A stretch of DNA of 12,204 nucleotides, taken from IMG/VR virus record IMGVR_UViG_2667528155_000014; one strand, given 5' to 3'. How positions within the stretch are numbered: the first letter of the stretch is position 1; every line of letters begins with the position of its first letter. This document shows positions 1,219 to 12,204 of the stretch, one piece after another. The translations under genes and the position numbers were made by a program. The stretch is from a virus (Duplodnaviria > Heunggongvirae > Uroviricota > Caudoviricetes). The notes below the pieces were generated by a model, which ran no database searches, was not told the origin of the DNA, and was given only the letters and a program-made list of their open reading frames with translations.

Positions 1219-1508
1219 TGTCCGGGTTACGTAAAGCAGCTAAAGGTCGGCAGTGCCAGGTGAGAATTCCCGGATACTGTAACCATAACCCTGAAACCTC
1301 GGTTCTGGCCCATTACCGTCTGGCCGGTACCTGTGGAGCATCAACCAAACCCAACGATATGCAGGCATCTATTGCCTGTAGCTGTTGTCATGACCTGATT
1401 GATGGCCGGATAAAAACAACAGACTTTACCCGCACCGAACTTCGGTTAATGCATGCCGAAGGCGTAATGCGTACGCAACAAATCTGGAGAGAGGAGGGAT
1501 TAGTATGA
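1218..1508 (+). CDS. DUF1364-family Cys-rich protein (YbcO-like, putative nuclease of the nin region)
   Basis: 96 aa with conserved Cys pattern (CQVRIPGYC ... CSCCH); 1-nt overlap with upstream gene and ATGA overlap with downstream gene indicate translational coupling. Confidence 0.6.
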   Translation: MSGLRKAAKGRQCQVRIPGYCNHNPETSVLAHYRLAGTCGASTKPNDMQASIACSCCHDLIDGRIKTTDFTRTELRLMHAEGVMRTQQIWREEGLV

Positions 1509-2044
1509 TCTACCCGGTCACGACAGGTAAACCTGGTGAAATGCTTCGTCTCACTACGCTTGAGACGTTATGGGTACAGGGAAAGCTAAGAATGTGGGGG
1601 CGCTGGTCTTATATCGGAAATGGCCATCCGGGAAATATCTTCAATCAGTTGCTGGTCAGTAAAAAAATCACCCGCACAGGCGCCCGTGATGCGCTCAGGC
1701 TGCTTAAAAAATCAGGCACTACCAGGCCTGAACTGGAGCAATTTTTACGTGAGATATTGAACGGTAAGCAGAAAAGCTACCTTGCATACTGTACTGATTC
1801 TGAAGCACTGATAATCGACCGGGTTATCGGGGCAGTTCTGGCAGATCATCCCGCACTAAAGGCACTGCTTCACCAGCGTTACGAAGGACGGGGAATGAGT
1901 AAGCGAAAGATAGCTGAGAAACTTCAGGAAAAATACCCTGACTGGAGTTATGTTACCTGTCGGCGACGAATCGACCAATGGCTGTATATGGTTGAATACA
2001 TGCTTTATATCCCGCTACGGGATTCCATTGATAGGAATGTGTGA
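1505..2044 (+). CDS. putative late-gene antitermination protein Q-like
   Basis: 179-aa ORF immediately upstream of the late regulatory region and lysis genes, coupled to the nin genes. The call rests mainly on position in the lambdoid gene order; family not verified. Confidence 0.5.
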   Translation: MIYPVTTGKPGEMLRLTTLETLWVQGKLRMWGRWSYIGNGHPGNIFNQLLVSKKITRTGARDALRLLKKSGTTRPELEQFLREILNGKQKSYLAYCTDSEALIIDRVIGAVLADHPALKALLHQRYEGRGMSKRKIAEKLQEKYPDWSYVTCRRRIDQWLYMVEYMLYIPLRDSIDRNV

Positions 2045-2308
2045 TGAGTTGTGCTTATCCACTAACTGAAACTTGACAGTAAAAAGCTGCGGGTGATTTT
2101 TGTGGAAATATCAATGTGCAAGATGAATGGAAGTATAACTAAGTTATATCAGTGTTTAAATGCAGGCGAAGAGTAATAAAGCATATGATTAAGGTCAAAT
2201 TACGTCGCTGAAAAAGTATTGCAATTTGAGCCATAAACTGCTTCAATCACTGTATGCTTCGCAAAGCTGTATCGCGAGGTCAAGGATGCAGAACATGAAC
2301 ACCAGATG

Positions 2309-2339
2309 AACCCGCCACGGTGCGGGTTTTGTCGTTTTT
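2309..2339 (+). terminator. rho-independent terminator
   Basis: Stem AACCCGC / GCGGGTT with 6-nt loop CACGGT, followed by TTTTGTCGTTTTT. Confidence 0.6.
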
Positions 2340-2360
2340 AAAAGACGGCTTCAGGTGGAC

Positions 2361-2435
2361 CTACTTGCCAAAAATCAGTGCGAAGATGAGCGCAATAACA
2401 CAGATTGCGATAGCCATTTTTTCATGACACGGCAT
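2361..2435 (-). CDS. tiny hydrophobic peptide (24 aa MPCHEKMAIAICVIALIFALIFGK; 18 aa from the internal ATG at 2417)
   Basis: Minus-strand ORF below the ORF-track size cutoff; GGAG 8 nt upstream of the ATG at 2435; almost entirely hydrophobic; sits between two terminators. Confidence 0.2.
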   Translation of the reverse strand: MPCHEKMAIAICVIALIFALIFGK

Positions 2436-2450
2436 TCTCAGTTCTCCGTA

Positions 2451-2479
2451 TAAAAAAGGGCCCGCGTCAGATAGCGGGC
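2451..2479 (-). terminator. rho-independent terminator, minus-strand orientation
   Basis: Stem GCCCGC / GCGGGC (8-nt loop); on the minus strand it is followed by a T6-7 tract (plus-strand TAAAAAAGG). Confidence 0.45.
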
Positions 2480-2647
2480 AAAATCACAATTGGAAAAGGT
2501 AAGAGGCTTAAGTGCTTCATAGGGGGAAGCCTGAGGACCGTAGTAATTTCTTCATAAACCTATCAAGTTCGTATCTGCAATTGTTTAAGTTCTGTTTAAT
2601 TTCATATGCGCAGATTCACATTTTGGCATTTCAGCAAAATAAATATC

Positions 2648-2711
2648 TTGTCAGCCGCTGTCTGCGGGTAATAGGTTCCCCCCGTTGCAGTGAATCCCAC
2701 TAGCGTAGGGG
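2648..2711 (+). promoter_or_regulatory. promoter-leader module copy A (TTGTCA -35 at 2648-2653, ATAGGT -10 at 2671-2676, conserved leader hairpin 2686-2711)
   Basis: sigma70-like hexamers 17 bp apart with CTGCGG in the spacer; leader TGCAGTGAATCCCACTAGCGTAGGGG is homologous to copies B and C; candidate PR'-type late promoter. Confidence 0.4.
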
Positions 2712-2803
2712 CATCGTCAGGTTTCGCTTCCACTGTTGACGTTGCGGTTAATACCATCGGGAGGCACCCGGCACTGCGGCAAATTGAAAACGGCGGTAAT
2801 TCA

Positions 2804-2830
2804 GGGCTCACTTCGGTGAGCCCTTTTTCA
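2804..2830 (+). terminator. rho-independent terminator (tR'-like, ~120 nt downstream of module A start)
   Basis: Perfect 8-bp stem GGGCTCAC / GTGAGCCC with TTCG tetraloop, followed by TTTTT. Confidence 0.7.
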
Positions 2831-2853
2831 TTTCGCCGACATGATAAAAAGCT

Positions 2854-2915
2854 TGATCTAAAGCACCTGCCGTTTATACGTTACCTCCTGCGGTGAATCT
2901 CACCAGCGTGAGGGG
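2854..2915 (+). promoter_or_regulatory. promoter-leader module copy B (TTGATC -35, ATACGT -10, leader TGCGGTGAATCTCACCAGCGTGAGGGG at 2889-2915)
   Basis: Same architecture as copy A; CTGCCG in spacer; leader contains overlapping inverted repeats GGTGA-ATC-TCACC and CTCAC-CAGC-GTGAG. Confidence 0.4.
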
Positions 2916-3402
2916 TGTGGCACTATTCATTCTGCCAGTATGTATTGCACCACACCATGGATACGTTTCACCGGGTTGCGACCGGCACCGCACTCATATC
3001 GGGTCGTGGAGATAGATTATTCGGGCTCTACTTTTAAATTGGTCATTGATGTGATTTCTGAGCGGGAAAATGCAGAATAAATACAGAACTGCTAATGCTC
3101 TAAAGGCATATTTACGCAGTATCAGATTTACAACGAATCAGGTATTCTTAATTAGCATCATTCTGTTGGTCATCGGATTATTAGGGGCAATAAAACTTAG
3201 TGTATGGGCTCTATTGAGTTGAACAATAGTTACATGCTAATAAGATTTATCGCTTTATCTCCTTTTTTGGCGTAATAATTCAGGTAGGGTGGGTGTTAAC
3301 AGTCTATTTAACTTGTTTGTGATTTACAGCCGAACAGATTGACTGTTGTAGCCTGCTGGTGATTTGTTTTTCTCATTCCTTTTTTACTTGGAGTGATGAA
3401 CA

Positions 3403-3837
3403 ATGATTACTATCGTACTGAATAAAATTAACCAGATCTTATCCCATGCTGACTTTGGTAAGTTCCTGTTAAGACTTGCTGTTGGTGGGCTGATGTTATT
3501 TCATGGTTTGCATAAGCTCTTTGCAGGAGTTGAAGGTATTAGCGGCATGCTTATAGCTAACGGCTTACCTGGATTTTTCGCATACGGAGCAATTGTGGGA
3601 GAGGTTTTGGCTCCAGGCCTGATTATTCTTGGGGTTCTTACTCGCCCCGCAGCACTGTTGCTGGCTTTTACAATGATTGTGGCCTGGCTTCTGGTGGGGG
3701 TAGAGGAAACATGGATGCTCGAAAGTACTGGCGCGTGGGGAATAGAAAGCCTGGTGTATTTTTTTGTTGGCTCTCTGTCAGTTGCATTACTGGGGGCAGG
3801 GCGTTATTCGGTCGCCAGGGGAACTGTATGGAATTAG
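3403..3837 (+). CDS. DoxX-family integral membrane protein (moron/cargo gene)
   Basis: 144 aa, four hydrophobic segments, LMLFHGLHKL-type N-terminal helix typical of DoxX proteins; GGAG 9 nt upstream of ATG; AT-rich upstream region. Confidence 0.6.
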   Translation: MITIVLNKINQILSHADFGKFLLRLAVGGLMLFHGLHKLFAGVEGISGMLIANGLPGFFAYGAIVGEVLAPGLIILGVLTRPAALLLAFTMIVAWLLVGVEETWMLESTGAWGIESLVYFFVGSLSVALLGAGRYSVARGTVWN

Positions 3838-3886
3838 TAAACCTGGATGGATGAATACACATTTAATGAACAGGGATGATGACGTT

Positions 3887-3913
3887 GAAAAAAGCCCGTC
3901 ATACAGAACGGGC
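3887..3913 (-). terminator. hairpin with T-tract on the minus strand (possible minus-oriented terminator)
   Basis: Stem GCCCGT / ACGGGC with 8-nt loop; plus strand has A6 upstream of the stem, so the U-tract is on the minus-strand transcript only. Confidence 0.3.
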
Positions 3914-4076
3914 AAAATCACACATAAGCAGAAAATAATTGAGGTCGCTTCATGGGAGAAGCAGAAAGAACATAATGATTTTTTTCTGAACCGGTCAAGT
4001 GTGATGTCTTAGCTTTTTGAAGGTTTAATTCTCCGTGCGCAGTTTCGCATTTTGAGTAATTTATTTGGAAGAGGCC

Positions 4077-4140
4077 TTGCCTGCCAGAATCTGCGGACGA
4101 TAAATTTTTCTCATTGCGGTGAATCTCACTAGCGTTGAGG
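4077..4140 (+). promoter_or_regulatory. promoter-leader module copy C (TTGCCT -35 at 4077-4082, ATAAAT -10 at 4100-4105, leader 4115-4140), likely promoter of the tRNA/lysis transcript
   Basis: Best-matching hexamers of the three copies, 17-bp spacer with CTGCGG; leader TGCGGTGAATCTCACTAGCGTTGAGG; a shared CCGGCACCGCA box at 4211-4223 directly abuts the tRNA. Confidence 0.45.
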
Positions 4141-4228
4141 CTTGCTGAAATGGAGAATTTTCGCGAAGCAGATTGTGTATCAGCGCGCAATCTACCGGAA
4201 TAATAGCGGTCCGGCACCGCAGCGTCAT

Positions 4229-4305
4229 GGCCCTTTAGCTCAGTTGGTCAGAGCGTGCGACTCATAATCGCCAGGTCGCTGGTTCAAGTCCAGCAAGGGC
4301 CACCA
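4229..4305 (+). tRNA. tRNA-Ile2 (anticodon CAU, lysidine type; by anticodon alone could also be tRNA-Met)
   Basis: Full cloverleaf: acceptor GGCCCTT/AAGGGCC, D-arm GCTC...GAGC, anticodon loop CTCATAA, T-arm GCTGG-TTCAAGT-CCAGC, encoded CCA. T-arm and anticodon arm match my recollection of E. coli ileX; a prophage copy would be ileZ-like. Confidence 0.85.
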
Positions 4306-4308
4306 AAA

Positions 4309-4384
<76 letters not shown>

Positions 4385-4649
4385 GTTTTGAATGGGCGCT
4401 GCTTTTTGCAAAATTGCTGTGTAAAAATACTGACCTTCCGGTCCAGCGCTCATCCAAAAGCACTCCGTTAAAATCCTGGCAACCATGGGTGGTTTGTTGG
4501 ATGGAGTGCCTCCGAATAATAAAACTCGCGTTATAAAGGCTGCGCATTTGCGTGGCCTTTTTCGTATTCAGATCTGCAGCATACTCAGCCCGGAAGGCTG
4601 AATTTTTTCACCAGTACACAGCACCATCCGGAAACCGGGGGTGAGGTAT

Positions 4650-4985
4650 ATGAAAATGAATGACAAAAACCCTGAATTCTGGGCGGCGGTTTTGACCGGA
4701 CTCAAAAATGCGTGGCCCCAGTTACTGGGGGCATCAATGGCCGGACTCATTGCTTATGCCCGCCTGATATACGATGGCGTCACGCGAAAAAATAAATGGC
4801 TTGAGGGCGTCCTTTGTGGCGCCCTTTCTTTATGTATCACCAGTGCGCTGGATGCGTTTGGCCTTCCTGTATCGATATCACCCTTTGTCGGTGGCGTGAT
4901 TGGCTTCGTCGGCGTGGATAAATTACGTGAAATTGCCATCAGTGCGCTTAAAAAACGGGCAGGGATAAATGATGAGAACCAGTAA
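4650..4985 (+). CDS. S: class I holin, lambda S-like, with dual-start motif (Met-Lys-Met)
   Basis: MKMNDKNPEF... starts at ATG 4650 and ATG 4656 behind GGGGGTGAGG; three hydrophobic segments; C-terminus KKRAGINDENQ resembles lambda S KKAGVEDGRNQ as recalled. Confidence 0.85.
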   Translation: MKMNDKNPEFWAAVLTGLKNAWPQLLGASMAGLIAYARLIYDGVTRKNKWLEGVLCGALSLCITSALDAFGLPVSISPFVGGVIGFVGVDKLREIAISALKKRAGINDENQ

Positions 4986-6433: not shown

Positions 6434-7342
6434 CTATTGAAGGAAGTTCCGAGCCCGAAGAAAGTTTTGAGCAATCAGGTCGCCAATTGGATTTAAAACA
6501 TATGAATTAAAGTCATTTATGGTCGATACGCCAAATGCATCTAGAGTTAACTTTAAAGCAGGAAATGTTTCAAAGAACATCTCATCGCTTTCAAAGCTGG
6601 TGATTCCAGTCCTTTTTCCAAGTAGGTCTTGATAGTTTGTTATGTATTGCTTGTCTGTGAAGATAACGCCTTTTAAGCTGAGGAGATCAATGTTTATTTT
6701 TCTCAAAGACTCTATTTTATCTAAGAATTTAATGTAATCAATATCATAGCGAGCATAGTATTCTTTGTGGGCTGAATGGTTTTGCTCTACGGTAAAGCCA
6801 ATTAATCCAAAGTGAGTTTCATTTCTTTCAGCAAGAGCTGTCATGTTAATACCGTTTCGTATCTTATTTATGTTTCTGAGGTAATATATTAGAGAGAGAA
6901 ATTTAATGTCGTTTGTTGTTAATTTAGATGTCACCTCAAGAGCGTGATCTATAACTATACTATCCTCTTCTTCTTCAGTTTGAATTTTAGAAACGATTAG
7001 CTCTTTAAGTAACTCCGATTTTTCATCAAATCCTTTTCGAGCCACCTGAGTTACAGCTTGGTTCATCGAATATTGAATGTCAGGGTCGGATAATTTCTCT
7101 TTTAATTTATGATCAAGATCACTAGAAAGTTTAGCTGCAATCTGATTACCAAATTCTATCGCTCGTTGGTTTACAAGTTTATATGCTTCCTCTTTTAAAG
7201 AAGCCATTTGTGCTTGAACTACTAATTCACAGATAGTAACTACTTCAGTAGTAGTATTACCAATGATAGCATCACCGGTTACTTGGATTGCGGTAGAACC
7301 ATCTCCGACATGTTGACCCGACTTATGATCGAAAAGACTCAT
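6434..7342 (-). CDS. hypothetical 302-aa protein, AT-rich cargo gene of unknown function (candidate phage-exclusion/defence component)
   Basis: Long clean ORF antisense to the late operon; AAGGA 6 nt upstream of ATG 7342; ATGA overlap with the upstream small ORF; no family recognised by inspection. Confidence 0.7.
   Translation of the reverse strand: MSLFDHKSGQHVGDGSTAIQVTGDAIIGNTTTEVVTICELVVQAQMASLKEEAYKLVNQRAIEFGNQIAAKLSSDLDHKLKEKLSDPDIQYSMNQAVTQVARKGFDEKSELLKELIVSKIQTEEEEDSIVIDHALEVTSKLTTNDIKFLSLIYYLRNINKIRNGINMTALAERNETHFGLIGFTVEQNHSAHKEYYARYDIDYIKFLDKIESLRKINIDLLSLKGVIFTDKQYITNYQDLLGKRTGITSFESDEMFFETFPALKLTLDAFGVSTINDFNSYVLNPIGDLIAQNFLRARNFLQ

Positions 7343-11123: not shown

Positions 11124-12204
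<1,081 letters not shown>

Follow-up and report, generated by a model that had tools for sequence, protein, structure and literature searches.

A hydrophobic 24-codon reading frame between the convergent terminators of two RNA units in a lambdoid prophage

A minus-strand reading frame that encodes little more than a hydrophobic stretch, and that has a terminator on either side, raises the question of whether the site is a small membrane peptide gene, a type I toxin locus, or no gene at all. The window, which is the whole stretch of 12,204 nucleotides that was analysed, is a lambdoid prophage. On its plus strand the Q gene is followed by small RNAs, a 50-aa ORF, DoxX, tRNA-Met, holin, endolysin, spanin, an HNH gene and terminase; the exact Q protein is found in NCBI annotation labelled Escherichia coli. 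The features on which the analysis draws are as follows.

619-1218, plus: NinB/Orf-like gene
1218-1508, plus: DUF1364/YbcO gene
1505-2044, plus: Q-type antiterminator gene (DUF1133/Q-like; PHROG 753 'anti-termination protein Q-like', E 3e-64; Pfam DUF1133 and a weak match to Phage_antitermQ)
2219-2247, plus: late-promoter-like site read from the sequence, of putative function (-35 TTGCAA at 2219-2224, 17-nt spacer, -10 TTCAAT at 2242-2247)
2254-2339, plus: short leader RNA ending in a tR'-type intrinsic terminator (stem-loop 2308-2329, T-run to 2339; terminator scan)
2356-2359, no strand: mosaic junction and left end of the cassette; Salmonella loci L093-L095 match 2211-2357 at 96.6% and then diverge fully
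2361-2435, minus: 24-codon hydrophobic ORF MPCHEKMAIAICVIALIFALIFGK, by translation of the window, with its TAG stop codon at 2363-2361
2444-2447, minus: Shine-Dalgarno-like GGAG, 8 nt ahead of the ATG at 2435, read from the sequence
2452-2531, minus: sRNA-like unit A, about 80 nt (5' hairpin GCUUC...GAAGC, 34-nt C/U-rich single strand, terminator; fold z = -2.5)
2537-2566, minus: promoter-like site of unit A (-35 TTGATA at 2566-2561, 18-nt spacer, -10 TACGGT at 2542-2537)
2657-2834, plus: sRNA of the STnc100 family, in divergent orientation to unit A (Rfam RF02076; 66.2 bits, gathering score 47)
2865-3035, plus: STnc100-like element (23.3 bits, below the Rfam threshold)
3070-3222, plus: 50-aa ORF with one hydrophobic helix, ahead of DoxX
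3403-3837, plus: DoxX-family gene, a moron in the late region; its nearest relatives, at about 75% identity, are chromosomal doxX genes of Citrobacter amalonaticus
3886-3964, minus: sRNA-like unit B, a paralogue of unit A by direct repeats and alignments (fold z = -3.4; R1 score 88 bits)
4115-4221, plus: STnc100-like element (30.6 bits, below the Rfam threshold)
4229-4305, plus: tRNA-Met

In Citrobacter amalonaticus, doxX lies between a TPP-enzyme gene and genes with Fer2/Prismane domains. The tRNA-Met gene of the window is followed by a second tRNA-like match (4316-4373, plus; Rfam 44.8 bits, model positions 8-63), which was not called by ARAGORN and may be a degraded tRNA. A minus-strand ORF of 302 aa (6434-7342; phrog_19542, function not assigned) lies between the lysis and packaging genes, and the right end of the window (11976-12204) carries an IS3-family transposase match, 88.7% to a Salmonella phage record.

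Coding features and rarity of the hydrophobic run

The individual elements that had been noted in a preliminary description of this DNA were all recovered. The hydrophobic minus-strand ORF of 24 aa is present at 2361-2435, with an internal Met at codon 7, and correctly spaced GGAG occurs at 2447-2444, followed by 8 nt and then the ATG. The terminator scan returned both the minus-strand terminator upstream of the ribosome-binding site (stem 2479-2460, U-run 2457-2452) and the plus-strand terminator on the other side of the ORF (stem-loop 2308-2329, T-run to 2339). The frame begins ATG CCG TGT CAT GAA AAA ATG GCT and ends GGC AAG TAG. As read from the sequence, all of its codons are common enterobacterial ones and no Shine-Dalgarno (SD) sequence precedes the internal ATG. 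The product has 16 consecutive hydrophobic residues among its 24 and a C-terminus of F-G-K. A plus-strand ORF across the same site (2355-2453; 32 aa, GTG start, no SD) was rejected as a mirror-frame by-product.

For a single window this ORF is unusual. Small ORFs of 15-60 aa formed 239 families in the window, and an uninterrupted hydrophobic run of at least 12 was seen only in the 2361-2435 frame, where it reaches 16. A run of at least 16 arose in 1 of 1000 dinucleotide shuffles of the window, a generous null, and together with an SD in 0 of 1000; these figures are for one window, and a look-elsewhere discount applies to them, since the first-stage scan covered many windows. No small ORF in 495 kb of related prophage loci had a run of 16, and the few with a run of 14 are all conserved and look like real genes. 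The rarity of the run is thus real support for coding potential, tempered by the number of windows screened and by the generous null.

Real small genes are marked by synonymous and conservative variation that keeps the frame, and this signature was seen in the 50-aa ORF at 3070-3222. In comparison with a relative of 92% identity (L101), 23 of its 50 codons differ (12 synonymously, 11 mostly conservatively) and the frame is intact; by this pattern, it probably encodes a genuine small membrane protein that has escaped annotation. The gene caller had extended this ORF to 86 aa in L101. Approximately 15 related loci carry a 28-aa hydrophobic sORF, MENNKSAHYAPFLSVILFVLCCAWALFL, with the SD AAGGTGAG, about 1.2 kb upstream of Q and on the opposite strand (1755-1841, minus, in L031; 1748-1834, minus, in L068); it is absent from the window. 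Its variation is likewise synonymous and conservative, and from its sequence it looks like a real small membrane protein. The same signature is unavailable for the 2361-2435 frame; every carrier is identical across it and there is no informative sequence variation in frame.

Homology searches returned no relatives. No Pfam or NCBIfam family matched MPCHEKMAIAICVIALIFALIFGK, and the best PHROG match was insignificant (E 0.39). A distant blastn search with 2330-2660 of the window gave no match in phages, plasmids or 5,426 E. coli genomes; nor did a tblastn search for the peptide in phages and plasmids, in which the query was possibly masked as low complexity. The exact peptide was absent from 15 billion proteins, as expected for a product of 24 aa, and its text string was not found in a full-text literature search. 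Exact, wobble-degenerate and hydrophobicity-degenerate patterns run against 2.9 million viral contigs matched only an identical self copy (L003). The pattern scan of 185,579 species genomes gave one chance match, antisense to bamA, and the degenerate peptide pattern gave two chance matches in a metagenome scan of 241 million records, antisense to rplK and to the same bamA. An anchor made of the ribosome-binding site plus the terminator had 0 matches in metagenome contigs.

The two flanking RNA units

On the plus strand, the segment upstream of the cassette proved to be linked to Q. The 80 IMG/VR loci used for comparison had been picked solely for encoding a Q homologue (63-69% identity), and in BLAST searches 2207-2338 was the sole part of 2045-2900 common to 80/80 of them. 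The element lay a few bases past the Q stop codon or behind inserts of 0.8-1.4 kb, which were sRNA modules such as isrK, C4 and sRNA-Xcc1, and it was also present in Salmonella loci with an 88%-identical Q. An alignment of 24 diverse Q-linked copies had an A-tract, a -35 box of TTGCAw or TTGATT, a 17-nt spacer and a -10 box of TTCAAT. Both boxes and about 35 nt downstream were nearly invariant in these copies, as was the sequence GTAyGCTTCGCAAAGCTGTATCGCGAGG past the -10, which includes TATGCT/TACGCT. A variable stretch then precedes the hairpin and T-run; the hairpin itself varies, and an unrelated one is found in some loci (L030, L083). In the window the hairpin at 2308-2329 has a free energy of -13.6 kcal/mol, and the -10-like TATGCT occupies 2253-2258, the place expected for a sigma-dependent pause element. 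We take this TATGCT/TACGCT to occupy the site at which lambdoid late promoters (lambda pR') carry a -10-like pause element.

The element thus lies downstream of the Q gene, is co-inherited with the Q family, and combines a sigma-70 promoter, a conserved initial transcript and an intrinsic terminator. Since it accompanies every Q homologue, the plus-strand unit 2219-2339 is, as judged by these features, a putative pR'-leader-tR'-type late leader that would yield an RNA of about 85 nt; its Q-dependence we infer. PR' of lambdoid phages is always active, and its transcription is stopped immediately downstream during lysogeny (PMC7547250). Given a pR'-leader-tR' architecture, the plus-strand terminator would be the late-leader terminator and no part of a peptide locus.

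IsrK was considered for this leader and rejected, as the match (14.5 bits) covered nothing but the terminator and the true isrK of related loci is found at another place. Between the Q stop codon and the late promoter (2045-2210) lies a hot spot for insertions: a 315-nt insert in L089 carries a YecR-like gene (3625-3941), the Salmonella loci L092-L095 have an ORF6N gene (about 3556-4390), and many IMG/VR loci have isrK and C4 antisense modules there.

On the minus strand, terminator A consists of a GCCCGC/GCGGGC stem with an 8-nt loop (2479-2460), then CC, then six U (2457-2452). The terminator scan gave CCUUUUUU directly after this hairpin, which has a free energy of -12.5 kcal/mol; its U-run ends 4 nt ahead of the SD. 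This terminator belongs to a duplicated module. Repeat analysis of 2000-4700 revealed direct repeats pairing 2454-2488 with 3888-3922 and 2594-2625 with 4023-4054, and copies A and B could be aligned from the U-run over about 170 nt and on into an STnc100-like element. Both units start at the G of GCUUC and share identical 5' hairpins, the motif UGUGAUUUU and a C/U-rich stretch of roughly 34 nt that is predicted to be open. Promoter boxes occur at the aligned position in unit B (TTGACC-18-TATGTT). The terminator stems differ by compensated changes (GCCCGC/GCGGGC in A, GCCCGU/ACGGGC in B); furthermore, terminator A has CC between stem and U-run and 6 stem pairs, compared to 7 in B. Homology ends at the U-run. 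No ORF lies behind the terminator of unit B, which is 50 nt from the DoxX stop codon.

Because the module is duplicated, with promoter boxes, a shared fold and a compensated stem, the minus-strand terminator is predicted to be the 3' end of an sRNA-like gene. A covariance model derived from the A/B pair (R1), run over 536 kb of related DNA, matched nothing besides units A and B and the copies of them in L089, L092 and L101, and a pattern scan with an 18-mer of the sRNA-like unit matched only the self copy. Unit B is perfectly conserved in L101, which is weakly informative at a local divergence of about 2%. L089, a contig seen in 2 samples, carries the SNP C2475A (minus strand: G to U), which disrupts one base pair in the stem of terminator A and weakens its predicted energy from -12.5 to -6.7 kcal/mol.

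No Rfam family reached its gathering score for either unit; Esr41, RyhB and anti-hemB gave sub-threshold matches of 13-19 bits. Membership of unit A in Esr41 (RF02676) was rejected at 19.3 bits against a gathering score of 102 (E 0.2-0.5), and Rfam returned no Esr41 match for unit B. Frequent Esr41 matches in the vicinity of PasD, which is related to STnc100, have been reported (bioRxiv 10.64898/2026.05.13.724894); this report would fit the general picture of units A and B and does not establish their membership. The STnc100-family sRNA at 2657-2834 has its own terminator (2803-2824) and a promoter-like TTGGCA-15-TATCTT at 2623-2649, and the three STnc100-like elements share a 21-nt box, TGCRGTGAATCYCAC.

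With each terminator assigned to a neighbouring RNA unit, the suggestion that the pair frames a peptide locus did not hold. There is a cautionary point in this result: a pair of terminators around a tiny ORF is no signature of a locus where each can be assigned to a neighbouring RNA gene.

The orphan cassette and how it may be read

What is left between the two units is a 94-nt cassette (2357-2450) that holds the SD, 24 codons and the stop codon with 3-4 nt to spare at each end. Its right edge is the point at which A/B homology stops, at the U-run. The segment is absent from all 80 of the Q-related IMG/VR loci, and the only carriers are assemblies with an E. coli label and one Salmonella prophage, all with identical copies; the assembly GCA_016693955.1 is among those in which this prophage occurs. 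Positions 1400-3900 are 100% identical in three further assemblies (L087, L088 and L090), 2211-3900 is 99.7% identical in Salmonella enterica CP046278.1, and L089 differs from the window by one insertion and four SNPs, at 2122, 2127 (the insertion edge), 2475 and 2916. The cassette is unchanged in the contigs with the exact Q and in L092, in which Q is 88% identical. A search through the DoxX homologues turned up chromosomal genes of Citrobacter and a contig of 1.4 kb, which ends before the cassette is reached.

No promoter-like site was found between terminator A and the ATG at 2435, and none scoring at least 7/12 serves the ORF; terminator A sits between the ORF and any possible promoter. 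As the sole upstream promoter is that of unit A, the ORF could be transcribed only by read-through. Terminator A, with its CC spacer and one pair fewer than B, may leak into the ORF. Read on the minus strand, the tR' hairpin is not followed by a U-run, and hence no minus-strand terminator lies behind the ORF; a read-through RNA would consequently extend, as antisense, into the late promoter and Q. The structure of the ORF RNA is not unusual (fold z = -0.15). Neither strand of the 12-kb window has a match of at least 12 nt to the ORF region elsewhere, duplexes of the neighbouring RNAs with the ORF RNA were no better than shuffled controls (absolute z below 1.6 in all cases), and the only plus-strand promoter-like site that would transcribe across the ORF is pR', by read-through.

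The locus may accordingly be pictured as a three-way mosaic junction that follows closely, in the downstream direction, on the late promoter in a lambdoid prophage. The Q-linked constitutive promoter (2219-2247) would give a plus-strand leader of about 85 nt that is halted at 2308-2339 as long as RNA polymerase has not been modified by Q. On the opposite strand, an sRNA-like gene of about 80 nt (2531 to 2452) would be transcribed from its own promoter and halted at 2479-2452. The ORF and its SD would then be an orphan cassette left between two convergent 3' ends. In the lysogen this promoterless cassette would be shielded from transcription on both strands, and in lytic growth it would be transcribed solely as antisense, within the late mRNA; read-through of the sRNA terminator would be the sole route to ORF expression.

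A cassette that has no promoter, is shielded in the lysogen and is antisense only in lytic growth is most likely a silent spacer, or what remains of an older insert, flanked by the convergent terminators of two RNA genes. We give this reading a probability of roughly 0.55, and on it the ORF is presumably not expressed at a functional level. It agrees with the explanation of both terminators by the flanking RNA units, with paralogue B, which lacks the ORF, and with an ORF that has no promoter, unusual RNA structure, complementary RNA, homologue or family. It is opposed by the rarity of the run in the shuffles, alone and with an SD, and by its absence from 495 kb of related DNA; by the ATG, the correctly spaced GGAG and the exclusive use of common codons; and by the near-exact filling of the cassette by ORF and SD, as would be expected of a mobile mini-gene. 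The imperfection of terminator A also makes some read-through into the ORF likely, and the cassette is intact in both an E. coli-labelled and a Salmonella prophage.

Several of these points are those that favour a genuine product. That ORF and SD fill a discrete 94-nt cassette whose ends lie at mosaic junctions makes a small membrane peptide plausible. In this reading, which we regard as possible and hold only tentatively, the ORF would be a mini-moron for a 24-aa single-pass membrane peptide: the promoter of unit A and partial read-through of its terminator would yield a short sRNA and a longer sRNA-plus-sORF transcript, the latter would be translated from the GGAG/ATG, and the peptide would act in the inner membrane of the lysogen. 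The statistically rare hydrophobic run with its SD, the coincidence of cassette boundaries with gene ends, and the greater weakness of terminator A relative to B (CC spacer, 6 vs 7 stem pairs) are in its favour. So are the small conserved hydrophobic ORFs that exist in this phage group (the 50-aa ORF at 3070-3222 and the 28-aa sORF of related loci) and the orientation opposite to the late operon, which is typical of morons that are expressed in the lysogen. Evidence against it is that the ORF lacks its own promoter, follows directly on an intrinsic terminator and has no minus-strand terminator behind it, the tR' hairpin lacking a U-run in that direction; that homologues were not found and sequence variation is uninformative; and that paralogue B of the sRNA unit has no such ORF. 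If the peptide were made, it would be one more unannotated single-helix membrane peptide in enterobacterial prophage cargo, and would exemplify a coding frame whose only supply of transcripts is read-through of an sRNA terminator.

Type I toxins have been defined as proteins of less than 70 aa with a transmembrane stretch in which at least 10 of 15 residues are hydrophobic; a polar, charged or aromatic C-terminal cluster and frequent tandem duplication are typical of them (PMC2887945). By size and transmembrane stretch MPCHEKMAIAICVIALIFALIFGK falls within this definition. No antitoxin, whether a cis or nearby antisense RNA or a partly complementary sRNA, was found at the locus or in the 12 kb. 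Neither a promoter of its own nor a toxin mRNA with a long structured 5' UTR was seen, as the terminator ends 4 nt before the SD. The C-terminal cluster and tandem duplication are also lacking; the neighbouring module is duplicated, and copy B is without the ORF. No toxin family was matched in NCBIfam, Pfam or PHROG. Nor did Rfam, searched at E up to 10, give a toxin or antitoxin family, save for a 14-bit match to 'Betaproteobacteria toxic sRNA' that was located on the terminator. By the criteria of PMC2887945, the type I reading of this sequence fails on all tested defining features save size and hydrophobicity.

It is therefore very unlikely that the ORF is a type I-like toxin, in which a membrane-depolarising peptide would be made from an mRNA that the upstream terminator holds at low abundance and that antisense RNA from the constitutively active late promoter, reading through tR', neutralises. 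Resemblance to Ibs in size and hydrophobicity, agreement with the transmembrane criterion, and convergence with a constitutively transcribed RNA whose terminator is 24 nt from the stop codon speak for it. Against it, overlapping or complementary RNA would be absent unless tR' were read through; there is no tandem duplication and no polar or aromatic cluster in a peptide that ends G-K; and toxin protein families and antitoxin RNA families gave no match. The natural variant that weakens the terminator in L089 is tolerated, which would be surprising with a potent toxin directly behind it and weighs weakly against this reading. Very unlikely as well is a promoterless minimal toxin gene, with mRNA supplied by sRNA-terminator read-through, silencing by antisense read-through from the late promoter, and an output that reports the balance of the two convergent terminators; were it true, such a gene would be a type I-like module of borrowed parts.

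The suggestion of a possible small membrane peptide thus survives in part, through coding-looking features that exceed chance for one window and a discrete cassette, and its reading as a type I locus does not. The claim of a structured, terminator-rich type I locus fell with the lack of an ORF promoter, complementary RNA, tandem copy, C-terminal polar or aromatic cluster and family match. At best the locus is an unproven tiny membrane peptide, and it is no recognisable toxin-antitoxin locus. Two results are firmer: an undescribed sRNA-like unit that is duplicated and occurs together with STnc100-like elements, and a defined promoter-leader-terminator unit for late transcription in the DUF1133 Q family.

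Comparison with known systems

Ibs toxins are 18-19 aa in length. The locus resembles ibs/sib, shoB/ohsC, tisB/istR-1, zorO/orzO, ldr/rdl and hok/sok in that a very short hydrophobic peptide is encoded in an intergenic region rich in sRNAs and terminators, here within a prophage. In contrast to those type I loci, the ORF has no complementary sRNA, no promoter or long 5' UTR of its own and no tandem copies, it lacks a C-terminus that is polar or aromatic, it was matched neither by sequence nor by covariance model, and the flanking terminators are those of other genes.

Enterobacteria and prophage morons have small inner-membrane proteins, for example single-helix proteins of 20-50 aa, which were reportedly found in enterobacteria by Hemm, Storz and colleagues. 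Those proteins differ from the present candidate ORF in that tagging or ribosome profiling has validated them and that related strains usually conserve them; the ORF shares with them its length, a single Lys-flanked hydrophobic helix, an SD with ATG, and an intergenic site that is missed by gene callers.

Units A and B are similar to prophage-borne Hfq-type sRNAs (Esr41, STnc100/PasD, AgvB/AsxR) in their 5' hairpin, open C/U-rich stretch and U-tailed terminator, and each lies back to back with an STnc100-like element. They differ from Esr41, RyhB and anti-hemB in that they score far below the gathering thresholds and have no blastn similarity in 5,426 E. coli genomes.

The plus-strand unit is closest in design to the lambdoid pR'-leader-tR' arrangement, as in the 6S RNA of lambda and StxS of Stx phages (PMC7547250), with which it shares a sigma-70-type promoter tied to Q. 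It also shares the -10-like element at the transcript start, the short leader with an intrinsic terminator, and the late genes behind. Unlike pR' of lambda or Stx phages, to which 2219-2339 is unrelated in sequence, it belongs to the DUF1133 Q family.
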